This document shows positions 1-49,200 of a stretch of 51,077 bases of DNA, piece by piece. The DNA is taken from sequence record ON528718. One strand, written 5' to 3'. The notes beneath the pieces are model-generated. The model was not told the DNA's origin and made no database searches. It worked only from the letters and a program-made list of their open reading frames with translations. The stretch comes from Shigella phage ESh4. Position 1 is the first letter of the stretch. Each line of letters starts with the position of its first letter. A program made the translations under genes and the position numbers.

Positions 1-56
1 GGAAGGTATGCAAAACGAATGGGTTAGGGATGTTTTACGGATCGGAGAAATGAGCG

Positions 57-251
57 ATGAAGAATTGTTTACGTCAAATGCTAATAGACAAAATATTGAA
101 GTTCTGCGCCGTAAGTTCAATCTCACATGACGAATTCATGCACGCAATGTTAACGCTCATTCATTCTGACATGCGAGCGTTTAACATATCAGAGCATAAT
201 TTGTGTGATGAAGACGGAGTTTTATTGGTTACTGTAAAGCGTATTGAATAA
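57..251 (+). CDS. hypothetical protein (64 aa)
   Basis: Complete ORF with GGAGAAA RBS-like sequence upstream; followed by hairpin terminator at 255-280. Confidence 0.4.
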   Translation: MKNCLRQMLIDKILKFCAVSSISHDEFMHAMLTLIHSDMRAFNISEHNLCDEDGVLLVTVKRIE

Positions 252-254
252 CAA

Positions 255-280
255 AGGAGGCGTTAAGCCTCCTTTTTGTT
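255..280. terminator. bidirectional intrinsic terminator
   Basis: AGGAGGC-GTTAA-GCCTCCT followed by TTTTGTT; between convergent ORF 57-251 and spanin gene. Confidence 0.6.
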
Positions 281-661
281 GCCTTTGCGGTAGGAAAAGT
301 AAAGCATAGTCAAAAGACCACTGAAAATTGCAGCGCAATAGATTATAGGATCGTACCACTTCCTTTGCTCACCCTGCACGACCTGGATTTTATCAGCCTT
401 GATGGTGTTAGCCTGAATGGTTGACGTAGTAAAATCCTTCTTGCTGGAAGTGTCCACCTTATCAACCGCAGATTCCTTTATTGTAGTTTCCTGTTTTGTA
501 CTGGTGTCCTGCTTTGCGGTAACGCCAACGGCCTGCTTTACGTTCTCCGCTCCTGCCTGTGCTGTGATTTCCGGCTTGCTACCGATTAATCCGGTCAGTG
601 GCTTAACGCTTGAACATCCAGACAAAATAACAGCGATCGCGATTATTGATAACTTTCGCAT
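263..661 (-). CDS. unimolecular spanin (u-spanin-like lipoprotein with C-terminal TMD)
   Basis: N-terminal signal with lipobox LSGC, hydrophobic C-terminal segment; sits distal in holin-endolysin-spanin order as in T1 gp11. Confidence 0.55.
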   Translation of the reverse strand: MRKLSIIAIAVILSGCSSVKPLTGLIGSKPEITAQAGAENVKQAVGVTAKQDTSTKQETTIKESAVDKVDTSSKKDFTTSTIQANTIKADKIQVVQGEQRKWYDPIIYCAAIFSGLLTMLYFSYRKGNKKEA

Positions 662-663
662 AA

Positions 664-1152
664 TTACAGATCCTTAATGCAATATTTAAATTCCACCGCG
701 CGGCGGTTGCGCAGTCCTTTAGACGTTTCTTTCTTTCCAGTTTTTGGATTAGTGTATTTGGTCCATCGCCATAACTGATTGCACGCGTCCATATAACGAC
801 CGTTATTAATCAGCTTAAGCATGGTTGAATTTCTAAATGCACCAGTGCCAGCATTGTATGTGAATGAATACATCGCTGCGCGCATTGTATCAGGAATGTC
901 AACCTTTACACGCTTATCAACTTCATCCTTTGCGATCTTTATATGCTTTGCCAGTAGCGCATTGCACTCTCTCTGTGTGTACGTTTTGCCTGGTATTACG
1001 TCAGGTCCAGTTATTCCGGCGCAAACCGTCCATATCCCAGCAATATCTTTGTACGGCTTATGTTTTACTCCTTCTATTTCCTCCAGTAGCGGAGAAGTAA
1101 GGGCAAGAGCAACGCCAAAAGCCGCAGCGGTCACTCTTTGTTTTATACTCAT
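664..1152 (-). CDS. SAR endolysin, GH24 lysozyme family
   Basis: N-terminal weakly hydrophobic Ala/Gly-rich segment ([17 protein letters not shown]) followed by E-x8-D-x5-T catalytic spacing ([19 protein letters not shown]); start overlaps holin stop. Confidence 0.8.
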
Positions 1153-1367
1153 TATTTACCTCTGATCTCAATAGCTTTCTTAATATCACCGCATTCAAGC
1201 GCGTCACGTAGCGCCTTACTATCACGCCAGCGAAGATAAGCGCCCCACATACCAAATGCAGCCATCAAAACGAAGCTGGCTATTGCGATGGTTGTTTGAC
1301 CAGTTACCGCGCCAGTGATTGACGCGCCGCCAGTTCCGGAAGTTGCAGCGTTTAAAAAATCTTTCAT
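1152..1367 (-). CDS. holin (class III / pinholin-like, 71 aa)
   Basis: Single TMD ([19 protein letters not shown]), charged C-terminus, immediately upstream of the endolysin. Confidence 0.6.
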
Positions 1368-1440
1368 GATTAGATCTCCTGTAAATAAAAGTCAACAATT
1401 AATTGATTGTATCCTAACCATTGAACGCACAAAAAGGAAT

Positions 1441-1470
1441 AAAAAAAGGGCGAAGCAAAATGCCACGCCC
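1441..1470 (-). terminator. putative intrinsic terminator between early gene and lysis cassette
   Basis: GGGCG...CGCCC stem with A-run on plus strand (T-run on minus) right after phosphoesterase stop. Confidence 0.4.
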
Positions 1471-1513
1471 AATTAAATTGATGATTTATATTTATATTTT
1501 AATGATTAAAAGT

Positions 1514-2632
1514 TCAACCAGCCATTTCTGGATAATGCATAAATCGCCCTACTTCTCCGTATTCTTTATCATAAACAATAACCGCCGCACGGCGACGAGA
1601 ACGCCATCCACCGCGCGCAGCATATGCATCTTTTGCCGCCATAGTGCTATGCACTTCAACAATGCCCAAGCTTGTTTCAGTTACTGTTTGATGATGCCAG
1701 TGCCCTACGTGAGCATACATCATTTTTGAATTGCCGAAGTCTTCGCGCCAGTCTGCAGCGCACATCATTAGCAATGTTTCAGGTTTGCGGATAGTATGCC
1801 CGTGATGGTATGCCAGGAACGTTTTGCCATATTGTGTGTGATGAACTACTCGCGGAGATACATCAACATGCACTCGTGGCTCATTCTCATACGCTGCCGC
1901 CATTGCTGCGCGCAACCAGATCATGCCGCTTTGGTCGTGGTTGCCTTCAATTATCTGAATCTCGACGTTTTTGTGTTTTGATAACAGCTTTGTGATTGCT
2001 CGACGCACTGACCGGATGGCAACATAAACAAGTTTTGCGTATCGACTATCTTGATCCAGTACGTGACCGCTTGCAGGTGTCACCGCTTCAAGTCCGTCAC
2101 TATGCAGCATGTCACCACCAATCAGTAAAACAGCCTTTTCACTATCCGGCGCGCACTGGATTGAATAATCAATGAAATTATTCATTACGCGCTCCGCTGT
2201 TGCTGTATCCCAATTCTCGCCGCATTCATGCTTATGCGCCATTGCGCCCAAATGCATGTCAAAGATCGGATACAGTGATAACGTCTCGCTATAATCATTT
2301 TTTGATTCTGGTTGCGGATCAAGTCGCGGAACTTCTTCGCTAAATGCATCCATGGCGGCTTGCATTAATGCTTCTAACTGTTCGCGGTCCTTGCTTGTCT
2401 TAATCCATGTCATAACCACATTGCCATCTTGATCAATTAGCTTTGATTCTCCAGTAACACCAAAACCAGGTGATCCGATGGTTGTAACTTTACCTTGCTT
2501 TGCTAAGCGTGCCGCGCGGCGCTCAATGCTGCGAACGTTCATACCATACTCATTAGCGATCTGCTTATATGTCTTTCCCTGCTTGCGCTCATTGATAAAT
2601 TGTTCATCTGTGATTTTGATTTGCTTCATCAA
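1514..2632 (-). CDS. HTH domain fused to calcineurin-like metallophosphoesterase
   Basis: N-terminal HTH-like segment (YKQIANEYGMNVRSIERRAARL); metallophosphatase motifs GGDMLHSD, GNHD and multiple His clusters (GHWHH). Confidence 0.7.
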   Translation of the reverse strand: MMKQIKITDEQFINERKQGKTYKQIANEYGMNVRSIERRAARLAKQGKVTTIGSPGFGVTGESKLIDQDGNVVMTWIKTSKDREQLEALMQAAMDAFSEEVPRLDPQPESKNDYSETLSLYPIFDMHLGAMAHKHECGENWDTATAERVMNNFIDYSIQCAPDSEKAVLLIGGDMLHSDGLEAVTPASGHVLDQDSRYAKLVYVAIRSVRRAITKLLSKHKNVEIQIIEGNHDQSGMIWLRAAMAAAYENEPRVHVDVSPRVVHHTQYGKTFLAYHHGHTIRKPETLLMMCAADWREDFGNSKMMYAHVGHWHHQTVTETSLGIVEVHSTMAAKDAYAARGGWRSRRRAAVIVYDKEYGEVGRFMHYPEMAG

Positions 2633-2727
2633 AAATTCTCCTTATCTCATTATGACAACATATACAATAGAGATCGCCATCATAACAGGTAAGGGCAAAA
2701 GTAACAAACGCCACATGATAATAATCC

Positions 2728-2970
2728 TCATTTGTAGTATTTGCGCGGCTCGCGAATTTTCGCCATAGCCTCTTTGAAATCAATCTTTGTTGGTATTGCT
2801 GGTACGCGATGCATCTTGCGCGGTCGTTCATTGAGAAATGTCATTTTGTCGCCGCTTATAATGCTTATGTCAGCAATATCAAAATATTTTGCTATCCTGG
2901 CTATGTCTTCAGAGATCCCGCATTCCTTTGCGTGATCCCATACGGCCTGCCGACCTTGTTCAACCTTCAT
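2728..2970 (-). CDS. hypothetical protein (80 aa; track ORF 2728-3018 trimmed to ATG)
   Basis: Track ORF begins at TTG; in-frame ATG (MKVEQG...) at 2970 overlaps stop of upstream small ORF (ATGA-type coupling). Confidence 0.45.
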   Translation of the reverse strand: MKVEQGRQAVWDHAKECGISEDIARIAKYFDIADISIISGDKMTFLNERPRKMHRVPAIPTKIDFKEAMAKIREPRKYYK

Positions 2971-3171: not shown

Positions 3172-3218
3172 ATTATGCCCGACACAAGGCCGGGCGTTTT
3201 AACAAAAAGTGCTATTTT
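3172..3218 (-). promoter_or_regulatory. conserved promoter-like unit (22-bp element + hairpin spacer + CATAAT)
   Basis: Sense: AAATAGCACTTTTTGTTAAAAC-GCCCGGCCTTGTGTCGGG-CATAAT; 22 bp between TTGTTA and CATAAT; stop TAG of upstream ORF lies inside element. Confidence 0.55.
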
Positions 3219-4191: not shown

Positions 4192-4237
4192 ATTATGGCG
4201 CAATCCTTCGCGCCTGTTTTAACAAAAAGTGCTATTT
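4192..4237 (-). promoter_or_regulatory. conserved promoter-like unit
   Basis: Sense: AAATAGCACTTTTTGTTAAAAC-AGGCGCGAAGGATTGCGC-CATAAT, hairpin GGCGC/GCGCC in spacer; 35 nt upstream of Dam start. Confidence 0.55.
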
Positions 4238-4651
4238 CATCATGTATTCTACCGCGATCATGAATTGCTTATATCCGTATGTTACGGCAGCGAATCCGCC
4301 AAGCTCACGCACACGACGCAAGAAGGCTTTTTGCTCCTTGCTTACTTGTGATGCCTTACCCTTGCCGGACTTATTGACGCGCTTCATCTCTATTGCCGCG
4401 AAAGGGTAACGGCCTTTTAATCCAATCAGGATGATAAAATCACTTACGCCCTTAACAAGCCCAGCTTGCTGATCCATCATTGCGGTGGCGATCCCCTTTT
4501 CCCCCTCATTTTTAGTATGCCATGCCAGCAATTCAGGATGAGCATAAGTTACCCATTGAAACGCGCCTATCTGATGCGATTCTTCTTTTAGTGTATCTGT
4601 CGGATCTCTTTCGTAAAACTCCAGATAATCGCCTTTATCAGTCATTGCCAT
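4232..4651 (-). CDS. VRR-NUC domain nuclease
   Basis: VRR-NUC-like core (SDFIILIGLKGRYPFAAIEMKRV...GKASQVSKEQKAFL); start moved to ATG at 4651 with AAGGA RBS to avoid 47-nt overlap with helicase. Confidence 0.65.
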   Translation of the reverse strand: MAMTDKGDYLEFYERDPTDTLKEESHQIGAFQWVTYAHPELLAWHTKNEGEKGIATAMMDQQAGLVKGVSDFIILIGLKGRYPFAAIEMKRVNKSGKGKASQVSKEQKAFLRRVRELGGFAAVTYGYKQFMIAVEYMMK

Positions 4652-6677
4652 AATTAAATTCCTTCTTGTACAAATTATCTTCACCCTTGCTAGTCTTGCG
4701 GTGAGTTACACGCGATGGTGGCATGATGTGATTCACATATTGCATGATTTTACGTGCATTACGATAGCTCGCCACCATGCCAGCAACACGGCGATCTGGT
4801 ATGTGCTTAAGAGCAACGCTTCGCCATTTTGCGCGGCAAATTTGGCTCTCAGATTCAGGGAAAAATATCTCTCTCGCCCTGAAAGTGTCTATGCCATCGG
4901 AAAGCTCATAATTAAATATTATCCCTTTCTGGTTTTTCGTCATGTCAACCGAGAAAGATTGCACCTGAAACCAGTCGTTTTTTGTGTAGTGCTTTCCGCT
5001 TAACTTCTCGTTAGGGTCAATCAATGACATGTCGCAATGTCTGCATACCCTGGCCGCAATATCATTTTTCGTTCCACAACCGCGCTGAATAATCTTTTTA
5101 GTGCGCGGGTCAATCTGATCATCGCATGTCCTGAATTTAAAGAACCACTCGCATCTGTTGCCGTTTTCGTCTACGTGCATACAGCGACGAGCATAATAGC
5201 TATTAAGAGTTCCGCAAATAGGGCAAGGCTTCGGATCTTTACCATTTCTGAATCGCTTCTGATGCTGCGCCTGTTCAAGTATCGGATCAAAATAAAGCTC
5301 GCCTAACTCATCCATCGTTCCTGAAAAATCCATTACGAGGTGATCATCTTTCTTGAATCCTTGCTCCTTATGCCACTTCTTAAGCAGTCGCATTCCACGC
5401 CCTAAAAGCTGAATCAGCAAAGTTAGCGATCCAATCTTACGCAGAATAACAGACGTATCCCAAAACGGCACGTTAACGCCAGTAGTTAGCGCCTGAACCT
5501 GGAAGATGTATTTTACCTTCCCTTCGTATGCTTCCCTCAACCACTCCTTGCGCTGATTGTCGCCAGTCTTACCAGTAATGATCCTGTAAGTAGTTCCAGG
5601 TGGCAACGCTGCCGCTGCCTCTTTGCAATGCCTTTCTCCTGCACATGTCACAAGTACGCCGTTGCGGTTTTTACAGATCTCGTGAACTTTCGCCATGATG
5701 CGCTTTGTCATGGTCGCTTCTTCATGAATTTTTTGTTCCATCCTGCGAAGCGTTTTAGCGTCAAAGTCTGCAACGCCATCCTCACTGGATGCCTCAAACT
5801 CTGAAAGGTCATACCCTAGATCGCCAACGTCGCCAAAATTTGTTGGCACAACAGAACCGAATTTGATCAGGTAGTTGGTGTCAATATTAGTAACCTGTTC
5901 ACGCCAGAATCCTTTCTGTTTTTTGTCTTCTACCAGGATCGGGACTACGCCGCGAAACTCCGATCCAGTCATGCCAAATATGCGCAGTTCATGGCCATAT
6001 GCTTTCCTGCATCGGCGCATCATTTCCATGATAATGACAGTGTATTGTGTGCGGCCTGTTCCCTCCATTGGCAAGCCATCCTCACCAATCAGGAACTCTT
6101 CGCATTCGTTATCGCTCGTTATGTCATAATCTGGATTTGGTACTTTTTCGCCTTTCTTCGTCGTCATTTGTAAAAATGATTCGTCTTTCTCTATTGCGTC
6201 GGCAAGGTCTTCCCAATCCACCTGGTGACACTCGTCAATCCCGATAACGTGCGGAACATAGTCGCCAAGCGCTTTAAACAGTCCATTAACTACAGTTCCC
6301 TCAGAACCAACAACTATCGGAAAGTATGCGCTTTTTGTCTTCAGTCCTGCGCAATAGATGGAGTTCGGCACGCCAAGATTTGTTATCTCTTCAGAATCCT
6401 GATCCACAATCTCAGCCTGGCGAGCAAGGACCATCATTTTTAATCCCATTTTCCGGCACTGGTGAGCAACCATTGCAAACATCAATGTTTTGCCAGCCGA
6501 TACGGACGCTTTAACAAAGAATGGATGCTCATAATTTTTCATACGTTTTGCGATCTCAGCGTATGCAACGCACTGGTAATGGTAAGGCACAATCTCGCCA
6601 ACAGTGAATCGCTCCTGAATGGATTTAATTACCGCTTCACCAAGTGCTGATATTTGCTTTTCAATGTTTGGAATCAT
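4638..6677 (-). CDS. SF2 DNA helicase with C-terminal zinc-ribbon
   Basis: Walker A (SVSAGKT), DExH box (IGIDECHQV), C-terminal Cys clusters (CPICG...C..C); start set at ATG 6677 (MIPNIEK) with AAAGG RBS, track start 6701. Confidence 0.8.
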   Translation of the reverse strand: MIPNIEKQISALGEAVIKSIQERFTVGEIVPYHYQCVAYAEIAKRMKNYEHPFFVKASVSAGKTLMFAMVAHQCRKMGLKMMVLARQAEIVDQDSEEITNLGVPNSIYCAGLKTKSAYFPIVVGSEGTVVNGLFKALGDYVPHVIGIDECHQVDWEDLADAIEKDESFLQMTTKKGEKVPNPDYDITSDNECEEFLIGEDGLPMEGTGRTQYTVIIMEMMRRCRKAYGHELRIFGMTGSEFRGVVPILVEDKKQKGFWREQVTNIDTNYLIKFGSVVPTNFGDVGDLGYDLSEFEASSEDGVADFDAKTLRRMEQKIHEEATMTKRIMAKVHEICKNRNGVLVTCAGERHCKEAAAALPPGTTYRIITGKTGDNQRKEWLREAYEGKVKYIFQVQALTTGVNVPFWDTSVILRKIGSLTLLIQLLGRGMRLLKKWHKEQGFKKDDHLVMDFSGTMDELGELYFDPILEQAQHQKRFRNGKDPKPCPICGTLNSYYARRCMHVDENGNRCEWFFKFRTCDDQIDPRTKKIIQRGCGTKNDIAARVCRHCDMSLIDPNEKLSGKHYTKNDWFQVQSFSVDMTKNQKGIIFNYELSDGIDTFRAREIFFPESESQICRAKWRSVALKHIPDRRVAGMVASYRNARKIMQYVNHIMPPSRVTHRKTSKGEDNLYKKEFNYGND

Positions 6678-6687
6678 TCTAAAACCT

Positions 6688-6715
6688 TTGAGTAATGCCA
6701 TTTAGCGTGTATAAT
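6688..6715 (+). promoter_or_regulatory. sigma70-like promoter for rightward block
   Basis: TTGAGT-16bp-TATAAT upstream of ORF 6767. Confidence 0.4.
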
Positions 6716-6766: not shown

Positions 6767-7240
6767 ATGAAAGAAAAGCGGATCGCGGTATCAACTGGCA
6801 AGATTGACAAACGCACAATCAATGGCAATAACGGAACTCGACGTGGTAAAGATAAGAAAAAGCGAAAGCGCCCTACAGGATACTATGTTTTAAAAGATGA
6901 AGTGCGCGCCGGGCTAAAAGCGCGACTTGATATCCTTATTGAGTATTACGGAAGTGTGTCAGCAATGGCAAAACGTCTTAACGTTAGCCAGCAAACTGTA
7001 AATCAGTGGCGTGTTCGCGGTATGATTTCAGCCGCTGGCGCTCAAAAGGTGCATAACGATTACAAAAAATATGGCTGCCAAGGCTATCGCGCGTCATTCT
7101 GCCGTCCAGATCTGCGATTTGATTCCAATGGTAAACCGCTCACAAAGAGATGTGATAAGCGTGAAATGTTGCGAGTGGTAAGAATGTCAGATTATGAACC
7201 TAGCGGATTCCTGTATAAACCTGAAAGCACTAATTGCTAA
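6767..7240 (+). CDS. HTH DNA-binding protein (Cro/YdaS-like motif)
   Basis: MAKRLNVSQQTVNQWRVRGMIS helix-turn-helix signature; basic N-terminus; GGAGAA RBS. Confidence 0.55.
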   Translation: MKEKRIAVSTGKIDKRTINGNNGTRRGKDKKKRKRPTGYYVLKDEVRAGLKARLDILIEYYGSVSAMAKRLNVSQQTVNQWRVRGMISAAGAQKVHNDYKKYGCQGYRASFCRPDLRFDSNGKPLTKRCDKREMLRVVRMSDYEPSGFLYKPESTNC

Positions 7241-12186: not shown

Positions 12187-12625
12187 ATGCGTTTAACCCT
12201 TCTCCGTTATCTCTATGCCATTGCTTATGGTGTGCTTGGCATAACCATCTAACTGATAAAGGTTTGCTGTAATCGTCATGGTGTGCAACTGATTTTTCAC
12301 TACCGCAAATTTCACACGGTGATTTTTCCACCTTCCCATCACGTAATGCGTTATTCAATGCATTGTGTGCCTTATACTTTCCTGGAAATTTATTTCTCCA
12401 TTGTTTTAAATATTCTTTGTCTTGCCGGTTTCCTCTTTTTTTATCGTAATCTCTTTTTTCATCTATGTTATCCCATCTGTTTTTTGTGACATCTTTTTTT
12501 GTACATTCTTTGCACTTATTTAAGTGTCCATCAGCCATCCGTTTATGCTTATAAAATTCTTTAAGGGGCTTTACAGCCCCGCATTTAAAGCATTTCTTAA
12601 AGCGCATAGATTCGATGTTTTCCAT
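12185..12625 (-). CDS. HNH homing endonuclease
   Basis: N-terminal Cys pairs (CFKCG...CKEC) and HNH core (CEICG...VAHHDDYSKPL...WLCQAHH). Confidence 0.75.
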   Translation of the reverse strand: MENIESMRFKKCFKCGAVKPLKEFYKHKRMADGHLNKCKECTKKDVTKNRWDNIDEKRDYDKKRGNRQDKEYLKQWRNKFPGKYKAHNALNNALRDGKVEKSPCEICGSEKSVAHHDDYSKPLSVRWLCQAHHKQWHRDNGEGLNA

Positions 12626-13094
12626 ATTGCAATCCTACACTAGCAAAAGGGATGTCGTCGTCAAAGTCCATAGGAGGCTGATTGCTTTGTCTTGGCTGTT
12701 GCGGTTGTTGCGGTTGATTCTGTTGTTGTGGCTGGCCCCATCCTCCTTGAGTTCGCTGCTGATATTGTTGCTGGCTTTCCCCACGCTGACTGAAGATAAG
12801 ATTTGCAAATCCTCCTGGCATTAAGCTTGAATACATCTTTCCGTTATATTCACGCGTCTCAATGCGCAGCGTGTCGCAAGATACAGAAATAACCTTGCCA
12901 ACCTGGAACGCCTCATCATACCAACCATTAAGTCCGTCAGTTTTCGCATTAAAAAAGAAACTGTAGTTTGTATATTGCCAGTTTCCATCTTTATCTTTGT
13001 ATCGCTCTGAAAGTTCAACCACATAAAGTGTGCTTCCGTTAGGCATTTGCTTTACTCGCGGCTCTTTTCTGATCTCACCAGTAATAATATGCAT
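12597..13094 (-). CDS. ssb: single-stranded DNA-binding protein (SSB) with 15-aa C-terminal extension
   Basis: OB-fold-like N-terminus, Gly/Gln/Pro-rich linker, canonical acidic tip DFDDDIPF, but ORF continues ASVGLQYGKHRIYAL into the HNH gene; AGGAGA RBS. Confidence 0.8.
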   Translation of the reverse strand: MHIITGEIRKEPRVKQMPNGSTLYVVELSERYKDKDGNWQYTNYSFFFNAKTDGLNGWYDEAFQVGKVISVSCDTLRIETREYNGKMYSSLMPGGFANLIFSQRGESQQQYQQRTQGGWGQPQQQNQPQQPQQPRQSNQPPMDFDDDIPFASVGLQYGKHRIYAL

Positions 13095-13138
13095 TATTTA
13101 TTCTCCTGTAAGAAAGGGGCGCAAGCGCCCCATGTCAA

Positions 13139-13795
13139 TTATTCAAAATCAGTGATACTTTGTGATTTTACTTGCTCGTCGTTTTTTGTGTCAACGTCTT
13201 GAGCGGCGAGATTTTGCTTTGGTTGCGCTGGATTAAATCCTCGTGCTTTTCCGATCTCAAGCTCTGCTTTGCGTTTTTCGTAATGCTCTTTAATTACCTG
13301 CTTGCTTGCCGGATCGCTTGCCTTCCATGCTGATTTGAGCACTTCTTGTAATTCGTTTACGCTTTCACATTTCTCAATGTCACGCTTCCAGTCATTTGCA
13401 GATTTAACGGCAATCTGTGCGTCATCGTCTGCCTGGCTTAATCCAAATGCGGCTGCGGCTGCATAACGACGAGCATATGTGAATGCAGATCCGACGCCTT
13501 GAGGATCGTTTTTAACTATTGGTAATTCAGCATAGAATTTAACCCACTGACCGGAAACATGCAGGACTGTAGTTTCAACCTTGATTCGGTTAGGTTGTTC
13601 GCTTTCAATCATATCCTGCATCAACATTAGCTCGTTATCGTTGAGTGCTGGAGTGATTGCATCAAGTACGGCATCAAGTGTTGCGTAACGGTTTTTAAGG
13701 TGCGTGTTTTGCTTATCCTTCTTCACCTTTACAAACAAACTGCGCGCCTTATGCAGTGCTGGCAAAACCTTGTCGAATTGCTCTGATAGTTTCAT
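13139..13795 (-). CDS. single-strand annealing recombinase (Erf-like)
   Basis: [18 protein letters not shown] motif and position between exonuclease and SSB. Confidence 0.55.
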
Positions 13796-13840
13796 GATTA
13801 ATTCCCGTAATTAATGGCGGCTTTCGCCGCCTTATTGCTG

Positions 13841-14119
13841 TTAGTGCTTTGTTTCTTCTTTGGTGTGTAATTTAATCAGATTTTCCATCATGCGATCAGA
13901 ACTTTCTTTTACCGCCTTGATTGCTTCATCGTTGTCTTCGCTCATTGTTGCAATAAGTACGACGTTATCGACCGCATCAATTACTTTTCTGATGTACTCC
14001 ATTTCTTCTTCGCCTGCAGTTGGATCAAGTGGCGCCACAAAGTCACGAAGCAACATAGCCATGCCAGTTGCAAAATTGTTGATATGAACTGCCACCTCTG
14101 ACACTTGCTTGTTTTCCAT
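13841..14119 (-). CDS. hypothetical protein (92 aa)
   Basis: ORF with GAGGAA RBS; extended -10 TGTTATAAT about 40 nt upstream. Confidence 0.5.
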   Translation of the reverse strand: MENKQVSEVAVHINNFATGMAMLLRDFVAPLDPTAGEEEMEYIRKVIDAVDNVVLIATMSEDNDEAIKAVKESSDRMMENLIKLHTKEETKH

Positions 14120-14157
14120 GTTTATTTCCTCACGCTTGTTGTTAACTTATGCAGTGA

Positions 14158-14166
14158 ATTATAACA
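14158..14166 (-). promoter_or_regulatory. extended -10 element (TGTTATAAT)
   Basis: TGnTATAAT on minus strand upstream of ORF 13841-14119. Confidence 0.35.
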
Positions 14167-14200
14167 CCGCATTTTTCATTTGTTTAGCTATTTGTGCTGT

Positions 14201-15262
14201 TTAAATAAGATATTGCTTAAACTGGCGGCGCACCCAATCAGGAGTATCAAGGCAAACCTCAGGCTCACCGTTTGAATACGAAGGCCAAACGTCATGTTGC
14301 TGGCACATGGCAAACTGGTTAATCACGCTCATGTACTGAATGCGCCCGATCTTCAACTGCTCGCTATTCATGCGGAAAGCCAACGGCAAATAAGGTTCTT
14401 TCTTCTCTTGCGCTAACAGTCGCACAACTATAGGTCGCTTTTCTTCTGGATACGCTTTTCTGAATAAATCACATTGCAACGCCATTTTCAAATAATAGCC
14501 GTGATTGTAAGCCAGGCGCATAAACTCAGCCGGATTCGCGCTCATTGTTGTTTTGTAGTCAGTAATCACAATCGCCTCTGGATAAATAATATCGCGGCAA
14601 ATCGGTTGACCTTTTTCATCGTAACCATCAATCAGAGTTGCTGTCACGTTCTTTGTTACGTCAACGTGATCGCATCGCACTTTGACTTTTACGCCGTTGA
14701 TTTCACCGAACAACGATAATTCACGTTGTGCTGTCTTGCTATTCATACATGCGTTATGTTCCGGTATTGATTCCAGAACCTGGCGCATTGCCACGCACGA
14801 ATCGTAATCTTTAGCCTCGATTAACTGAACCCCATCGGCCCTAGCCTGGCTTTCTGCGATCATGTCGATTAACCACATGACGTTAAGGTCTTCTCCGCAG
14901 TCAACCATCATTTTTATAAGTTCTGGGTAAGTCTTTCCGGTTGTACCTTTCAGGCCAAATGATTTCAGCTTTGCAGCAAGCGCCGTTTGGCTGGTTATCA
15001 GATCCTTAAAGTCTTCTGGCGCTGGCGCACGGCGATAGGTTTTTTCGAAAAGCTCCTTGCTTTCAAAGTTGGTATGCGACTGCGTACCAAAAACTAGCGC
15101 CTTGCTCTTATCGTCACGAGGCTTGAACTTCCACGCTGCCGGGCATGTGCTGTAAATCTCTGCCAGGCTTGAACCGCTAACATAATCAGCCGTCCACGCT
15201 TCTGGATCGTGATAAAGCTCGTTGCTCATTTCTTCGCTGGTGTACGCCATAAACTTATTCAT
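14201..15262 (-). CDS. PD-(D/E)xK family recombination exonuclease
   Basis: D...ITDYKT core typical of RecB/YqaJ-like nucleases; first gene of leftward recombination operon. Confidence 0.65.
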   Translation of the reverse strand: MNKFMAYTSEEMSNELYHDPEAWTADYVSGSSLAEIYSTCPAAWKFKPRDDKSKALVFGTQSHTNFESKELFEKTYRRAPAPEDFKDLITSQTALAAKLKSFGLKGTTGKTYPELIKMMVDCGEDLNVMWLIDMIAESQARADGVQLIEAKDYDSCVAMRQVLESIPEHNACMNSKTAQRELSLFGEINGVKVKVRCDHVDVTKNVTATLIDGYDEKGQPICRDIIYPEAIVITDYKTTMSANPAEFMRLAYNHGYYLKMALQCDLFRKAYPEEKRPIVVRLLAQEKKEPYLPLAFRMNSEQLKIGRIQYMSVINQFAMCQQHDVWPSYSNGEPEVCLDTPDWVRRQFKQYLI

Positions 15263-26906: not shown

Positions 26907-26952
26907 TGATAGCACTTTTTGTTAAAAGAATTGATTATGAATCGTGTATCAT
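26907..26952 (+). promoter_or_regulatory. conserved promoter-like unit in inverted (antisense) orientation
   Basis: Plus strand ATAGCACTTTTTGTTAAAAG + 22 bp + TATCAT, pointing rightward into the leftward tail operon. Confidence 0.4.
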
Positions 26953-34939: not shown

Positions 34940-36508
34940 CTATTTGTTCCGCAAACCTGCCAATTTTTTCATTCTTCCTACCGGATCATCTGCCATGTTC
35001 ATTTCAATGTTAACAGCATCAATGATGTTATCAACAATATCATCATGAGGATGGCTATCATCGAATGTAAACGCCGCAACTTCAGCGAGAATCTCAGCCA
35101 GCATAGGATGAGATTCTGGAAGTGCCACGCGTCCGGCGCGCATTACTGGTGCTGCGTCCATTGCGCGAGTAACCTTGTCTTTATCTCGCTGAACTGGATT
35201 GATCTTGATCATGATTTTTTTCGCTGCGCTCTGAATCAAGCCAGTGCCAGATGACTTGTCTTCAACATGAATCCTTCGCAACGTTCCGCATTCTTTATTG
35301 CGCTTCCAGCACTGATTAACGAACGCAACAAAATTCGTCTCAAGGTCCGGTGCTTCCCATTTTCCGCGAACGCCATCAATGAAGTAGACACGATCTTTAT
35401 ACATCCCCCAATAACAGATCACGGAATAGTCGTTAAGCTCACCTGTTTTCTGCGCGGTATCAACCGTGATAAATGTATATTCAAAGCGATCCGGTTTTGG
35501 TAGTGTGCATTTCTCGCTGCTGCCGTAATACTGAAACCACTCTGTTTTAAACACGTTGCCGCCAAGCGCAACAGGCTGTTGCTGATACTGACTAGCGAAC
35601 GTGTACGGATCAGCATTTCGAAGTGCAAGTAATTCCTCCGCGCTTTCCTTAGCAGGCCAGAATGAATAATGAGCAACTCCATCAATCATCACTGGCTTAC
35701 TGGACAAAACATCGCGATCAAACTCAGGCTTTAACCAATCAGGAAGCGTTTCGCGATATTCCTTAGTAACTAGCGCCGGAATACTGACCACCTTAAACTG
35801 GATGCCGCCCATGCCGCCGTTTGTCATGAACCATGTTGAATCATTGACGTGTAGCCGTTGCTGGACCATTACGATTGGCGTTGTGTCCTTCATTCTACGC
35901 GATCGCACCGTGTTCTTTAGGCGCATGTGTCCGGCTTCGCGCTTCACCTTAGAAAGCATATCATCCGGTTTGTCTGGATCATCAAGAACCAGCATACCAG
36001 TAAATCCATCGTCCATGTAGCCGCCACGCAGACCAGTAACCTGACCACCGATAGAGCGCGAGTTAACTTGCAATTTAACCTTGCCACCATCGGTTACAAT
36101 TAAATCCTTTGCGCTCGCCTTCGCCAGTTTTCCAGGCCATAGCTCCTGCCATTCTGGAGAACCAATAATCTCTTTGATGCGGTTGCTATTCTGCTGGACA
36201 AGGCCATCACTAAACGAAAGATTAAGATTTCGCACCTTCTTACTTTTCAATGACGCATAAGGTGACATGTGGATCGAGAATATCTCTGTTTTACCGCTGC
36301 CTGGCGTTATGTTGAAAATTACGTTTTGTGACTCGCCTTTGATGATTTTTTCAACTTCGCTGCATAGGTAGCTGAAATGCCAGTTTCCTAAGAATTTCTG
36401 ACCTTGCAATAATTGAAACCAAATGCGGATCATCTTTTCGAATGAATATTCGCTCATTTCCTTAACGGCGCGTTTCTGCGCCGCTGTTAAGTCTTCCCAA
36501 ATCAGCAT
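34940..36508 (-). CDS. terL: terminase large subunit
   Basis: Walker A-like ITPGSGKT, Walker B-like LVLDDPD, C-terminal nuclease-like acidic residues; 522 aa. Confidence 0.85.
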   Translation of the reverse strand: MLIWEDLTAAQKRAVKEMSEYSFEKMIRIWFQLLQGQKFLGNWHFSYLCSEVEKIIKGESQNVIFNITPGSGKTEIFSIHMSPYASLKSKKVRNLNLSFSDGLVQQNSNRIKEIIGSPEWQELWPGKLAKASAKDLIVTDGGKVKLQVNSRSIGGQVTGLRGGYMDDGFTGMLVLDDPDKPDDMLSKVKREAGHMRLKNTVRSRRMKDTTPIVMVQQRLHVNDSTWFMTNGGMGGIQFKVVSIPALVTKEYRETLPDWLKPEFDRDVLSSKPVMIDGVAHYSFWPAKESAEELLALRNADPYTFASQYQQQPVALGGNVFKTEWFQYYGSSEKCTLPKPDRFEYTFITVDTAQKTGELNDYSVICYWGMYKDRVYFIDGVRGKWEAPDLETNFVAFVNQCWKRNKECGTLRRIHVEDKSSGTGLIQSAAKKIMIKINPVQRDKDKVTRAMDAAPVMRAGRVALPESHPMLAEILAEVAAFTFDDSHPHDDIVDNIIDAVNIEMNMADDPVGRMKKLAGLRNK

Positions 36509-37029
36509 TATATCTTCTCCAGAATGTCAATTACCGCCTCTTTGACTTCCTCCGCCGTTACAGCGTCAACGCTTGCGCTTGTATTATTCTCAATGGTAAC
36601 GGTAGCTGGCTTTTCAATGCCGATCTCTTTACCAATGAATCCGGCGTTAACAATATTGTTTGCAGCAAGCTGGAATTTTTGCTCGTAAACAACGCCGTCG
36701 ATAAAGTCCATAACCTCGCTGAATCCTGGCTCACGTCGCCATTTTTCAAGTACGGAAGCAGAAAGGCCAGCGAATAATCGGAATCCGTTTAAGGTGAACA
36801 CGCGCGGCTTGTAAATCTTGCTTTCGTATACGTCACCCTGAAAGGATGCCGTTTCCGCAGCCTGTATATGATTTTCCTCGGCCCACGTAAAGTAACGAAC
36901 AGCAAGATCAAATACCTGTTCCGGCGTGTACTTGTGCGCCTTTGTCATTTTTGCAATATCGCCATATTGCTTATTATATAGTTTTTTAAAATTGCAAGCC
37001 TTTACTGCTGGCTCAACGTTTTTAGCCAT
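36508..37029 (-). CDS. terminase small subunit (candidate)
   Basis: Gene immediately upstream of TerL; ATG at 37029 with AAGGAGGG RBS (track ORF extends to 37200). Confidence 0.55.
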   Translation of the reverse strand: MAKNVEPAVKACNFKKLYNKQYGDIAKMTKAHKYTPEQVFDLAVRYFTWAEENHIQAAETASFQGDVYESKIYKPRVFTLNGFRLFAGLSASVLEKWRREPGFSEVMDFIDGVVYEQKFQLAANNIVNAGFIGKEIGIEKPATVTIENNTSASVDAVTAEEVKEAVIDILEKI

Positions 37030-37058
37030 AATTCGCCCTCCTTTATAACAAAGCCTCA

Positions 37059-37064
37059 TTATAG
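37059..37064 (-). promoter_or_regulatory. -10-like TATAAT upstream of terminase genes
   Basis: TATAAT on minus strand between terminator 37079-37102 and TerS RBS; no clear -35. Confidence 0.3.
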
Positions 37065-37078
37065 ACAAATTGCAGACA

Positions 37079-37102
37079 ATAAAAAACCCGCCATTTGGCG
37101 GG
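37079..37102 (-). terminator. intrinsic terminator separating early region from packaging genes
   Basis: CCCGCC-AAAT-GGCGGG followed on minus strand by TTTTTTATT. Confidence 0.65.
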
Positions 37103-37109
37103 TAGTTTG

Positions 37110-37349
37110 TCAATACTTGTATTTTACTTTTTCTGGATTTGTTTTCATAGCGCTGTGAATCTTGCCACCGATTGATAAGTAGTGACCGCGAACCTGCCAA
37201 ACTTTCTGCTCTTCATCCCAAAACGCTAAAGCAAATTCTCCTTTTTTTGACTTATAGCGAACGCCAACAGCCAACACGAAAGATACAGCAACAAAACCGA
37301 TTAGAACACCAACAATTAAAGCAACCAAACCAATAATTACAGAACTCAT
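37110..37349 (-). CDS. small membrane protein (79 aa)
   Basis: N-terminal TMD (VIIGLVALIVGVLIGFVAVSFVLAV). Confidence 0.45.
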   Translation of the reverse strand: MSSVIIGLVALIVGVLIGFVAVSFVLAVGVRYKSKKGEFALAFWDEEQKVWQVRGHYLSIGGKIHSAMKTNPEKVKYKY

Positions 37350-39157: not shown

Positions 39158-39202
39158 ACTTTAACAAATGCCCTCGCGGAAGTTTTAACAAAAAGTGCTA
39201 TT
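39158..39202 (-). promoter_or_regulatory. conserved promoter-like unit
   Basis: Sense AATAGCACTTTTTGTTAAAAC + 22 bp + TAAAGT; upstream gene stop TAA abuts element. Confidence 0.45.
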
Positions 39203-39488
39203 AGCTCATGTAATAGATTTCATCGCGCACAAAATCGTCAAAATCAGATTGCGTTAATGGTCGATCCTCTAGTGCGGCCTGCTCAATCATTTCAACAAGG
39301 GCGCAATCCATATCAAGGTAATGCGCATCAAGATCATACCATGAAGCCATTTGACGCGCCCAGGAGCGGCAATTCTTGAGTCCGTAACGTCGGATACAGT
39401 TTGCCGTGTGAAATGAGTCATTCCAACCACACTCAAGCGCTGCCTTTTCGAATGCGTTAATCAACATCTTACGATTGCTTTTAGCCAT
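39201..39488 (-). CDS. hypothetical protein (95 aa)
   Basis: ORF track. Confidence 0.5.
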   Translation of the reverse strand: MAKSNRKMLINAFEKAALECGWNDSFHTANCIRRYGLKNCRSWARQMASWYDLDAHYLDMDCALVEMIEQAALEDRPLTQSDFDDFVRDEIYYMS

Positions 39489-41804: not shown

Positions 41805-41851
41805 ACTATACCGAAAGCCCGATAATCTGTTTTTGCAAAAAGTGCTATTTT
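41805..41851 (-). promoter_or_regulatory. conserved promoter-like unit (variant TTGCAA)
   Basis: Sense AAAATAGCACTTTTTGCAAAAAC + 22 bp + TATAGT; upstream gene stop TAG inside element. Confidence 0.5.
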
Positions 41852-42814: not shown

Positions 42815-42859
42815 ATTATACCTGGCCCCGCATTTGAGTTTTAACAATTCGTGCTATTT
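42815..42859 (-). promoter_or_regulatory. conserved promoter-like unit (variant)
   Basis: Sense AAATAGCACGAATTGTTAAAAC + 21 bp + TATAAT with GGCC...GGCC dyad around -10. Confidence 0.55.
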
Positions 42860-43803: not shown

Positions 43804-43849
43804 ATTATGCCTGGTTATCGTTTTTGAGTTTTAACAAAAAATGCTATTT
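43804..43849 (-). promoter_or_regulatory. conserved promoter-like unit
   Basis: Sense AAATAGCATTTTTTGTTAAAAC + 22 bp + CATAAT. Confidence 0.55.
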
Positions 43850-44267: not shown

Positions 44268-44313
44268 ATTATGCCAGGCTTTGCACCTGGCGTTTTAACA
44301 AAAAGTGCTATTT
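44268..44313 (-). promoter_or_regulatory. conserved promoter-like unit with CCAGG/CCTGG hairpin
   Basis: Sense AAATAGCACTTTTTGTTAAAAC-GCCAGGTGCAAAGCCTGG-CATAAT, near-identical to unit 48478-48524. Confidence 0.55.
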
Positions 44314-45631: not shown

Positions 45632-45677
45632 AAATAGCACTTTTTGTTAAAACTGAATCCGCCTGATCGGGTACATT
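45632..45677 (+). promoter_or_regulatory. conserved promoter-like unit (first rightward gene)
   Basis: AAATAGCACTTTTTGTTAAAAC + 22 bp + TACATT, 40 nt upstream of ORF 45717. Confidence 0.5.
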
Positions 45678-46244: not shown

Positions 46245-46511
46245 ATGGCGCGAATCAATGCACCTATTCCAGTTAAGCGCAAAGCACGACTGCTTAACAA
46301 TGGATGTTACGCCCTGCGGCCTGATTTTAAAAAACGCACCTTTCCGGTTATCGTCAACGTGTCGCACGTAAGCCGTAGCGGGAATCTGGCCTTTGTTAAC
46401 GGTGAAGATCTGGCGGCGCTTGGATTCTATGGCGGTATTTACGGCGAACCGCTCGGATTCTGGCTTGTAAATCCGTCAACTGGAGAACGTGAAATCGAAT
46501 TCCTGGACTAA
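46245..46511 (+). CDS. hypothetical protein (88 aa)
   Basis: ORF with GGAGAAATAAAG RBS; stop TAA abuts conserved element. Confidence 0.5.
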   Translation: MARINAPIPVKRKARLLNNGCYALRPDFKKRTFPVIVNVSHVSRSGNLAFVNGEDLAALGFYGGIYGEPLGFWLVNPSTGEREIEFLD

Positions 46512-46555
46512 ATAGCATTTTTTGTTAAAACCGATGCGCCTATGATTGGTATATT
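46510..46555 (+). promoter_or_regulatory. conserved promoter-like unit
   Basis: AAATAGCATTTTTTGTTAAAAC + 22 bp + TATATT; -10 lies in loop of CGATGCGC...GCGCATCG dyad. Confidence 0.55.
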
Positions 46556-47773: not shown

Positions 47774-48484
47774 ATGTATAAAGGTTTAATTTTCTCTTTG
47801 TTTGATGGATCTGGTAAAGCCGTTAAAGATTGGGCCGACGCTGGATATAAGTGCATTTGCTTTAATGCTGACGGTGGCGATCATGGTGATTACCAGTCAG
47901 TGCGCATACAGCATGAGAATATCGAATACGTTAACTTCTGGATTGATGAAAGATTTTACCACCGCGCGCGCTGGGAGGAATGGGGTATTCCTGACTTTAT
48001 TATGGCATTTCCTCCTTGCACACAATTAGCAAATAGCGGATCTCGTCATTGGGCTAAAAAGCGCGTGGAAAATCCTAACTTCCAGGATGAGGCCGCAGAC
48101 ACTTGCAAAATTGCGGCGCATATCGCTGATTATTTCGGTGTTCCGTACATGATAGAGAATCCTGTAGGAAAGTTATCAACGTTATGGCGGAAGCCTGATT
48201 ATACTTTCCATCCGTGCGATTATGCTGGCTATCTGCCGGAAGATGATAAGCATCCCGACTTCCCTGATATTATTCCGGCGCGGGATCGCTACTTTAAGAA
48301 AACATGCCTTTGGACTGGAAACGGATTTGTTATTCCTCCGCGCGCAACAATCCTTCCTAAAGAGGGCGACAAGGATAATCCTGGCTGGGCCAAAACTGGC
48401 GGAAAATCATCTCGCACAAAGATGATTCGCTCCCTCACACCGCGCGGTTTTGCTCGCGCCGTCTTTGAAGTAAACGCAAAATAG
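47774..48484 (+). CDS. DNA cytosine-5 methyltransferase-like protein (compact)
   Basis: Motif I-like LFDGSG, motif IV-like FPPCTQLANSG (Pro-Cys), motif VI-like MIENPVG; 236 aa; stop TAG inside conserved element. Confidence 0.5.
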   Translation: MYKGLIFSLFDGSGKAVKDWADAGYKCICFNADGGDHGDYQSVRIQHENIEYVNFWIDERFYHRARWEEWGIPDFIMAFPPCTQLANSGSRHWAKKRVENPNFQDEAADTCKIAAHIADYFGVPYMIENPVGKLSTLWRKPDYTFHPCDYAGYLPEDDKHPDFPDIIPARDRYFKKTCLWTGNGFVIPPRATILPKEGDKDNPGWAKTGGKSSRTKMIRSLTPRGFARAVFEVNAK

Positions 48485-48524
48485 CACTTTTTGTTAAAAG
48501 CCAGGTGTAAAAGCCTGGCATAAT
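48478..48524 (+). promoter_or_regulatory. conserved promoter-like unit with CCAGG/CCTGG hairpin
   Basis: AAATAGCACTTTTTGTTAAAAG-CCAGGTGTAAAAGCCTGG-CATAAT; 31 nt upstream of ORF 48556. Confidence 0.55.
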
Positions 48525-48942: not shown

Positions 48943-49160
48943 TCAAGACTGAATATCGCTATAAGGTGACTTATTCAGCAACAAAAACCTTCAAGCCTGG
49001 CGATATAGTCAGGCCAATAAAGAAAACGACGGTTGGATGGCTGATTGGTCTTTCTTACCACAAATCACTTTATTTTGATTTTGCTGATTCCGTAACCGCG
49101 CATTGCCATAGCGCAAGGGAACCAGAAAAAATCTTGGTTAGCATAGAGCGGATCAAATAG
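48939..49160 (+). CDS. hypothetical protein (73 aa)
   Basis: ORF track; stop TAG inside conserved element. Confidence 0.45.
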   Translation: MIKTEYRYKVTYSATKTFKPGDIVRPIKKTTVGWLIGLSYHKSLYFDFADSVTAHCHSAREPEKILVSIERIK

Positions 49161-49200
49161 CATTTTTTGTTAAATGCGGGTAGCATTGTTGCGGTATTAT
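49155..49200 (+). promoter_or_regulatory. conserved promoter-like unit
   Basis: AAATAGCATTTTTTGTTAAATG + 22 bp + TATTAT. Confidence 0.55.

Follow-up and report, generated by a model that had tools for sequence, protein, structure and literature searches.

A helix-turn-helix metallophosphoesterase of Shigella phage ESh4 is a member of a very large phage family and may be a DNA-directed nuclease

We analyzed a gene of Shigella phage ESh4 that, with its almost certain start codon, extends over positions 1514..2629 on the minus strand of a 51,077-nucleotide stretch of DNA (sequence record ON528718; this whole stretch is called the window below). Its product joins an N-terminal helix-turn-helix (HTH) domain to a calcineurin-like metallophosphoesterase (MPE). 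The 2-kb region around the gene showed 94-97% DNA identity to Hanrivervirus genomes (slyngel, KarlJaspers, pSf-1 and herni), and the window belongs to a Hanrivervirus-like T1-type phage (Drexlerviridae). The interpretation that we favor, and to which we give about an even chance of being correct, is that the protein is an HTH-tethered, Rad50-independent binuclear-metal nuclease, an accessory function that would act on DNA during infection. Among the points that we counted for a nuclease were the resemblance of its motifs I-II to those of Mre11/SbcD, the HHpred match to SbcD noted in the T1 GenBank record, the presence of DNA-metabolism neighbors in many genomes, the toxicity of the orthologue bas01_0050 of phage Bas01, and the precedent of the mycobacteriophage protein Gp48.

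In the mechanism that we propose, a small basic HTH, flexibly linked to a catalytically intact binuclear metallophosphoesterase, would keep the enzyme bound to duplex DNA, whether without specificity or through a target that is common to many hosts and phages rather than specific to T1. The metal center would cut phosphodiester bonds with a chemistry similar to that of Mre11/SbcD, but without Rad50/SbcC or a capping domain. The host chromosome would most likely be damaged or degraded, or DNA ends or intermediates might be processed. The architecture, the conserved catalytic residues and the lack of a partner protein were observed here, and the toxicity, dispensability and DRT7 link of the orthologue come from the literature. 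That the HTH contacts DNA, that the substrate is DNA and which DNA would be attacked are inferences on our part.

Domain architecture and catalytic center

The preliminary description of this DNA had proposed that an HTH-like segment and a calcineurin-like phosphoesterase core are combined in one protein, and this was borne out by both AlphaFold2 models and sequence motifs; the peptide segments quoted there were all located in the protein at the places given, with TYKQIANEYGMNVRSIERRAARLAKQGK at residues 20-47. The AlphaFold2 model of the whole protein (29 homologues in the alignment, mean pLDDT 73.9) contained helices at residues 8-16, 21-28 and 32-44, a low-confidence linker at 51-57, a beta-hairpin at 58-78, a helix at 82-95 and an alpha/beta core at 114-365, and a separate model of residues 1-112 reproduced the N-terminal topology. 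All parts of the protein described here are encoded on the minus strand. Residues 1-47 (2489..2629) form the N-terminal three-helix HTH, a compact tri-helical bundle in the predicted structure, with the putative recognition helix VRSIERRAARLAK and a strongly basic composition (12 K/R versus 5 D/E, net charge +7). It is followed by an inter-domain linker (residues 48-57; 2459..2488) of low pLDDT, whose length varied among relatives, with an insertion of 7-8 amino acids (aa; HGHGN...) in Klebsiella/T1-type members. A module of beta-hairpin (58-78) and helix (82-97), encoded at 2339..2458 and containing an invariant W75, precedes the metallophosphoesterase core (residues 114-365; 1535..2290), in which the beta-sandwich MPE fold was present.

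Several homologues, including those of Campylobacter phage NCTC12673 (317 aa), P0125, P0200 and P0269, have no HTH and start directly at the hairpin, and in such homologues the hairpin-helix module was retained together with the catalytic core. The preliminary description had considered that the N-terminal segment might instead align as a structural part of the phosphoesterase fold. Structure prediction, the variable linker and the HTH-less homologues all showed the HTH to be separate from that fold.

Pfam models matched the window protein only below threshold, both for the HTH (HTH_28, E 0.0026, 18.2 bits versus a cut-off of 25) and for the phosphoesterase (Metallophos, E 0.062, 14.2 bits versus a gathering cut-off of 21.5). 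Conservation was analyzed in an alignment of 124 cluster representatives that were 30-57% identical to the window protein. The Pfam matches in these representatives were almost exclusively to Metallophos and HTH models. The Metallophos model reached E <=0.01 in only 29 of the 124; the sub-threshold score reflects a family too divergent for the Pfam model and is not evidence against the MPE fold. HTH models were assigned as HTH_1 in 24 representatives, HTH_8 in 17, Sigma70_r4_2 in 13, GerE in 8 and others, with the best scores for Sigma70_r4_2 (1.5e-9), GerE (2.4e-8) and HTH_8 (2.6e-7). The putative recognition helix was fairly conserved across unrelated phages. That the HTH may target the enzyme to DNA, as had been suggested in the preliminary description, is plausible and appears to be the most economical reading.

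All five motifs of the calcineurin-like MPE superfamily (PF00149 clan; DxH / GD / GNH[DE] / H / GHxH) were found in the protein. Motif I (IFDMHLG, 2246..2266, with FDMHLG at residues 123-128) has invariant D124 and H126. In motif II (GGDMLHSD, residues 171-178; 2096..2119), G172 and D173 were invariant, and H176 and D178 were present in at least 90% of the representatives. Motif III (GNHD, residues 229-232; 1934..1945) showed invariant N230 and H231, with D232 in at least 90%; motif IV (HHGH, residues 275-278; 1796..1807) an invariant H276; and motif V (GHWHH, residues 309-313; 1691..1705) an invariant H312, with H310 in at least 90%. Between motifs II and III, a conserved loop specific to the family, TPASGHVLDQDSR (pattern TPxSGHxLDxDxR, residues 184-196; 2042..2080), contained an invariant T184 as well as L191, D192, D194 and R196 in at least 90%; it was modeled with low pLDDT and presumably belongs to the substrate site. 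Since the metal-binding and catalytic residues were invariant in the 124 representatives, the protein is predicted to be an active enzyme under strong constraint and not a scaffold.

Comparison with Mre11/SbcD and a putative nuclease function

The best match in the PDB of a profile made from nine family sequences was Mre11/SbcD of T. maritima, which was aligned over motifs I-II (DxHLG...W and GDLLH) with a marginal E of 0.17 (hmmsearch). The same profile also gave marginal matches to LuxR-type HTHs, and the single window protein produced only a chance match when compared with the PDB by sequence (E 1.4). The likeness to Mre11/SbcD comprises the binuclear MPE fold, the five motifs, DxHLG and GDxLH in motifs I/II, and a likely nuclease chemistry. 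On the other hand, the capping domain and the Rad50/SbcC-binding tail of Mre11/SbcD are absent here, where about 55 residues follow motif V, and the HTH, the hairpin-helix module and the TPxSGHxLDxDxR loop belong to the family of the window protein and are foreign to SbcD/Mre11.

These differences bear on the possibility that the protein is an SbcD/Mre11 orthologue that works with an SbcC/Rad50 of the phage or host in the processing of double-strand breaks and hairpins. Such an orthologue would agree with the label of PHROG 704, with RefSeq product names and with a note in the T1 GenBank record that reports 99% HHpred probability to SbcD (4LTY), a value that is expected for any MPE pair. However, only about 175 residues could be aligned to Mre11/SbcD, comparison of the family profile with E. 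coli SbcD by hhalign gave a probability of 9.6%, and no SbcC/Rad50-like ATPase was present among the 37 window open reading frames (ORFs) of at least 150 aa, the Pfam-scanned replication/recombination genes and the 70 inspected slyngel features. We therefore consider this possibility very unlikely. The window protein is very probably not an orthologue of SbcD/Mre11, the similarity of fold is generic, and the 'DNA repair exonuclease' label (PHROG 704, RefSeq) is a fold-level analogy and not demonstrated orthology. An annotation such as 'HTH domain-containing metallophosphoesterase (putative nuclease)' would be preferable to SbcD.

The closest information on function came from bas01_0050, which was a tblastn match with 59% identity over the full length and occupied the same syntenic position. 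According to a 2026 preprint (bioRxiv 10.64898/2026.02.16.706125), Bas1 escapers of the DRT7/UG10 defence had acquired missense changes or frameshifts in bas01_0050, its expression from pBAD33 was toxic in E. coli, lambda escapers of DRT7 mapped to gam, and the authors described bas01_0050 as a putative nucleic acid-targeting phosphoesterase. The escaper mutations and the toxicity of expression imply that the orthologue is dispensable for plaques, harmful to the host by itself and the determinant of DRT7 sensitivity. A DNA-directed nuclease of the type proposed here would explain the toxicity in E. coli, the dispensability and the role in DRT7/UG10 sensitivity.

Phage-encoded enzymes that attack host DNA offer precedents. 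T4 gp46/gp47 provides one for an Mre11-type enzyme in host-DNA breakdown and recombination. Another is Gp48 of mycobacteriophage A10ZJ24 (a cluster A MPE), a toxic phosphodiesterase that aids infection by disrupting the genomic DNA of the host (PMC12287305). Gp48 is also a phage-encoded MPE with the five motifs; it differs from the window protein in that it is small, starts directly with motif I (D10G inactive), has neither HTH nor hairpin-helix module, and belongs to another host and phage lineage (PMC12287305). No specific relationship between the two proteins was seen. PdeM and the Pseudomonas 'Nuclease MPE' (a ligase-associated endonuclease) are likewise stand-alone, Rad50-independent MPE nucleases. 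However, PdeM has about 210 aa and no HTH, and its similarity to the window protein was limited to about 30 residues. Around motif III, weak local matches were found to TIGR04123 (E 3e-4) and PDB entry 6nvo (E ~1), and the former (PdeM) was far below threshold (20.2 bits versus an NCBIfam cut-off of 150, residues 208-239 only); the search of NCBIfam yielded sub-threshold matches only. The homing endonucleases I-TevI (GIY-YIG, linker and HTH) and I-HmuI (HNH with NUMOD/HTH) resemble the window protein in having a nuclease domain flexibly linked to a small HTH and in their variable context, and two family representatives matched the NUMOD-like Pfam model of I-HmuI. In contrast with the window protein, they have another catalytic fold and a reversed order of domains, and they occur sporadically rather than as a syntenic gene.

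Several considerations weigh against the nuclease interpretation. Besides the low hhalign probability mentioned above, two loops close to the presumed active site (179-195 and 328-342) were modeled with low confidence, and the gene neighborhood was not conserved, so that guilt by association is weak. The toxicity and the link to DRT7 do not prove a DNA substrate, and the existence of HTH-less homologues means that tethering to DNA is not obligatory for the catalytic module. In addition, the literature searched contained no biochemical assay of any member of the HTH-MPE family, and no functional study was found in literature on the Drexlerviridae phosphoesterase, T1 SbcD, HTH-metallophosphoesterase, and T1 host-DNA degradation/gene 2.5.

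The main alternative is that the HTH regulates transcription, possibly of its own gene, in the manner of HTH-fused anti-CRISPR proteins, and that the enzyme acts on a substrate other than DNA. Signaling nucleotides, (p)ppGpp-like molecules, capped RNA or phosphoproteins would then be candidate substrates, for host takeover or counter-defence. This would fit a mobile accessory cassette that occurs in unrelated phages, often beside Ant or superinfection-immunity genes, and an orthologue that interacts genetically with a defence system. A sigma-70-like promoter match at 2679-2707 (TTGTTA-17-TATGAT with TG) just upstream of the gene also pointed in this direction, but the number of such matches was within chance (3 found versus 6.4 expected), and no operator-like inverted repeat was found upstream of the gene. 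Among the PADLOC anti-phage defence profiles, no family matched at E up to 1. The signature of PPP protein phosphatases is GDxHG / GDxVDRG / GNHE. The window protein has FDMHLG / GGDMLHSD / GNHD, which does not correspond to that signature, although a label of PPP-type Ser/Thr phosphatase sits on some Jerseyvirus homologues; motifs I/II (DxHLG and GDxLH) fit Mre11/SbcD. Moreover, a recognition helix that is kept across unrelated phages would be unexpected if each phage's own operator were recognized, and toxicity from expression alone is easier to explain by DNA damage. Taken together, we regard an autoregulated enzyme with a non-DNA substrate as unlikely.

The nuclease interpretation can be extended to a more specific proposal, namely that many siphophages employ this family, as an Mre11-like nuclease tethered to DNA and independent of Rad50, to nick or degrade the host chromosome, that the resulting DNA damage or degradation products are sensed by DRT7/UG10 in parallel to lambda Gam, and that it is the kind of function behind the classical T1 host-DNA degradation. 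We put this forward tentatively and consider it rather doubtful as a whole. The gene itself is ordinary; what matters is the biochemistry of the family, given its occurrence in about 4% of sequenced phages and thousands of protein clusters. The identity of the substrate would explain how DRT7 defence is triggered and could reveal a common phage route to host-DNA damage.

Distribution and genomic context of the family

The preliminary description had called a DNA-binding domain on a phosphoesterase an uncommon architecture. Our searches did not bear this out: the HTH-MPE fusion is usual in a very large family of phage proteins, in which nearly all clusters have the HTH at the N-terminus. By tblastn, the protein was found in 2046 of 50,697 phage records (about 4%), including 1955 with at least 80% coverage, and a profile search of 1.84 billion cluster representatives returned 5308, 3796 and 1324 clusters at E 1e-3, 1e-10 and 1e-30, respectively. 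Relatives identified by tblastn included T1 ORF16 (AAP49983.1; 57% identity) and the Bas01 protein (59%) within Drexlerviridae, the lambdoid phages mEp010 and mEp013 and E. coli prophages (65-67%), and Dhillonvirus, Kagunavirus and Jerseyvirus (39-47%), as well as Vibrio, Roseobacter, Flavobacterium and other phages. Members were named 'winged helix-turn-helix domain-containing protein' or 'metallophosphoesterase' by NCBI, and the matches in a viral fold library were phage homologues that were nameless or generically labeled (uncharacterised, phosphoesterase, DNA polymerase II small subunit). The gene is thus already known, being conserved in Drexlerviridae and annotated in hundreds of genomes. 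PHROG 704, T1 ORF16 and bas01_0050 share with the window protein the same HTH, hairpin-helix module and MPE, full-length homology and the same position in Drexlerviridae, and the latter is simply a member of this group. Only minor differences were noted: no homing-endonuclease gene is inserted downstream in the window, and the C-terminus is 5 aa shorter than that of some relatives with 99% identity.

Some host labels of the records that carry the gene appeared inconsistent. Twenty 'Campylobacter phage' records (e.g. MG065643 E6 and MG065673 A119) and Streptococcus phage MBBL140 (P0051) contained a gene that was 79-100% identical to those of T1-like phages of E. coli/Salmonella. These labels are probably wrong, and the records represent contaminating coliphages or have been mislabeled.

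Analysis of the genomic context revealed different surroundings in different phage groups. In the window, T1 and Bas01, the gene is preceded by helicase, VRR-NUC and Dam and followed by the lysis genes, a synteny that extended across three subfamilies of Drexlerviridae (Tunavirinae, Braunvirinae and Tempevirinae). It was located between an O-like initiator/Ant and DnaB helicase in lambdoid prophages, in an island among tail genes together with an immunity peptide, an HNH gene and Ant in Jerseyvirus, and between the lysis cassette and terS in Dhillonvirus. Environmental phages carried it at the boundary of tail/lysis genes and replication/nucleotide-metabolism genes, with neighbors such as DNA polymerase, RNR, a faint match to DNMK dNMP-kinase and a weak match to dGTP_diPhyd_N, and in a Campylobacter myovirus an HTH-less homologue adjoins DNA ligase. 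The gene behaves as a self-contained, mobile accessory cassette and tends to occur among DNA-metabolism or lysis genes. The window protein shared more identity with its lambdoid counterparts (65-67%) than with the T1 copy (57%), which suggests that temperate and virulent phages have exchanged the gene horizontally.

The positions in lambdoid prophages and Dhillonvirus, next to initiator and helicase genes or to terS, could also be expected from a non-catalytic scaffold of the replisome or packaging machinery, similar to the inactivated phosphoesterase B-subunits of eukaryotic polymerases, with the HTH recognizing an origin or pac site. All metal-binding and catalytic residues are invariant, however, and the lambdoid prophages already encode an initiator (Lin1244_N / 'O'). 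Furthermore, the terminase genes of the window (34940-37200) lie about 32 kb from the phosphoesterase gene, and the orthologue is dispensable according to the preprint. We consider such a scaffold the least probable of the explanations discussed here, with hardly any chance of being correct. Other roles were rejected as well. A replication initiator or helicase loader in lambdoid prophages is disfavored by the O-like initiator present there and by the invariant catalytic center, and a packaging nuclease, suggested by the terS neighbor in Dhillonvirus, does not agree with the distant terminase of the window phage. A homing endonuclease was also rejected, as the gene keeps its position in T1, Bas01 and Hanrivervirus and true HNH/GIY-YIG genes are inserted beside it.

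In five phages, genes of the latter type immediately follow the phosphoesterase gene: T1 (L003 6207-6689), Bas01 (L021 4204-4689), Jerseyvirus Ent3 (L007 6159-6659), a Vibrio phage (L010 5064-5573) and an environmental phage (L018 7148-7852). In Henu8, an HNH gene was also present in this region. The corresponding part of the window (1368-1513) has no homing gene and consists only of a 146-nt spacer with a terminator. The 3' flank of the phosphoesterase gene looks like a recurrent homing site. Lysis genes (holin, endolysin, spanin) adjoined the gene, before or after it, in about half of the contexts analyzed, unrelated phages included (window 1-1367; L008 3562-4753; L010 2238-2711 and 5911-6282; L017 4211-5056; L020 7827-8321). 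In addition, the lambdoid and Jerseyvirus loci each had an Ant anti-repressor gene in the company of the phosphoesterase gene.

Transcription unit and the 22-bp element

The preliminary description had given the gene as an ORF of 372 aa (1514..2632, minus strand) that begins with TTG. The ORF is real, but this TTG sits one codon upstream of the likely start. Translation almost certainly begins at ATG 2629, which gives a coding sequence of 1514..2629 (stop codon 1514-1516) and a protein of 371 aa; the gene shows 97% nucleotide identity to Hanrivervirus genomes. The assignment of the start is based on the AAGGAG located 8 nt upstream, on relatives that begin with MKQ/MSQ (the proteins of close relatives open with MKQIKITD) and on the 1116-nt coding sequence in annotated relatives. 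As read from the sequence, the putative ribosome-binding site AAGGAG occupies 2638..2643 (minus strand), 8 nt upstream of ATG 2629 and 5 nt upstream of TTG 2632. In Hanrivervirus, the counterpart gene is annotated as putative phosphoesterase / DNA repair exonuclease. The match to PHROG 704 ('DNA repair exonuclease') had an E of 2.5e-151 and aligned residues 6-371 with profile positions 3-389 of 390; this full-length match, the 99%-identical proteins in many deposited phages and the invariance of the motifs indicate that the ORF is not due to chance.

The phosphoesterase gene is the last of a small transcription unit that consists of a 22-bp element, CATAAT, two small ORFs, a 29-aa mini-ORF, the gene and a terminator. 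The apparent promoter unit at its head (3172..3217, minus strand) comprises the 22-bp element at 3196-3217, a GC hairpin at 3177-3195 and CATAAT at 3172-3177. At the other end, an intrinsic terminator, GGGCGUGGCAUUUUGCUUCGCCC followed by U7 (1441..1470, minus strand; -14.6 kcal/mol), separates the phosphoesterase gene from the holin-endolysin-spanin cassette, and the T1 record annotates a terminator at the same place.

The 22-bp element, AAATAGCACTTTTTGTTAAAAC, occurred in 12 copies at <=3 mismatches in the window versus 0 expected. Copies on the minus strand are located at 3196-3217, 4216-4237, 39182-39203, 41829-41850, 42838-42859, 43828-43849 and 44292-44313, and those on the plus strand at 26907-26928, 45632-45653, 46510-46531, 48479-48500 and 49155-49176. 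All but one of the 12 were co-directional with the neighboring ORFs, the copy at 26907 being opposed to the surrounding genes. Most copies shared a layout in which a spacer of about 16-18 nt, mostly GC-rich and hairpin-forming, is followed by a -10-like hexamer (CATAAT, TATAAT or similar) that lies 21-22 nt downstream of the element's TTGTTA, and then by a stretch with a 'CGAAACGA'-like motif, a ribosome-binding site and a start codon. By this arrangement of sequence signals, the co-directional copies look like promoter units. The element was also present in slyngel, phiE31-2, T1 and Bas01, and among the loci compared it occurred only in T1-like ones. The hairpins are annotated as terminators in the T1 GenBank record. 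As a string, the 22-bp element was not found in the literature searched.

It had been suggested in the preliminary description that the phosphoesterase might be a candidate factor for these conserved promoter units, i.e. that its HTH recognizes AAATAGCACTTTTTGTTAAAAC and the protein either activates or represses the units or is targeted there. Some observations would agree with this: the element is real and highly over-represented, its arrangement with the -10-like hexamer is fixed, the phosphoesterase operon is headed by the copy at 3196-3217, in T1 and Bas01 a copy starts exactly where the phosphoesterase gene has its stop codon, and the protein has a basic HTH. However, no phyletic coupling was observed. 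No copy, even at 3 mismatches, was detected in four lambdoid prophage loci or in the complete genomes of Dhillonvirus 'rolling' and Jerseyvirus Ent3, although each of them encodes a full-length HTH-MPE (39-66% identity), and, as noted above, the window protein is nearer to the element-less lambdoid version than to that of T1. Bas1 has the element yet tolerates mutation of the gene, which is a strong but not decisive point, since a truncated HTH-only product is conceivable. In addition, a dedicated Cro/C2-like regulator is encoded at 6767-7240 of the window, and a pure regulator would need no invariant catalytic center. The suggestion is therefore unsupported, and a promoter factor of this kind appears highly improbable.

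Directly upstream of the phosphoesterase gene, the hydrophobic mini-ORF of 29 aa (MRIIIMWRLLLLPLPVMMAISIVYVVIMR; 2642..2731, minus strand), which is not annotated, has a stop codon that overlaps the ribosome-binding site of the gene. Small hydrophobic ORFs were found at this place in four phage groups, namely Hanrivervirus, T1 (23 aa, MKLYFAVVLTPLISFSVMYFIIM; L003 4919-4990), Dhillonvirus (26 aa; L008 4850-4930) and Jerseyvirus (59 aa; L007 4747-4926). The last of these is annotated 'immunity to superinfection', and those of Hanrivervirus, T1 and Dhillonvirus were absent from the inspected annotations. The mini-peptides of the window and T1 had a common C-terminus (...S.V.Y..IM). The mini-ORF may encode a conserved membrane mini-protein that travels with the phosphoesterase gene.

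The C-terminus of the phosphoesterase varied among relatives with 99% identity. The window protein ends in ...PEMAG*, whereas some relatives end in ...PEMAD* and others, with 376 aa, in ...PEMADRTFNY*; the position of the stop codon is polymorphic (window 1514-1530; relatives P0001 versus P0009). As to other replication and recombination genes, the annotated genes of the window phage did not include a DNA polymerase. RecE-like (PDDEXK) and Erf proteins and SSB were assigned at 12597-15262; the SSB call was made by synteny with slyngel, and the 165-aa ORF concerned (12597-13094) had no Pfam match. Finally, two helicase-like proteins are encoded in the window: a DUF3987 protein of 527 aa (49229-50812, plus strand; E 1.7e-43), whose counterpart in T1 is annotated 'putative ATPase', and a ResIII/Helicase_C protein of 687 aa (4638-6701, minus strand).

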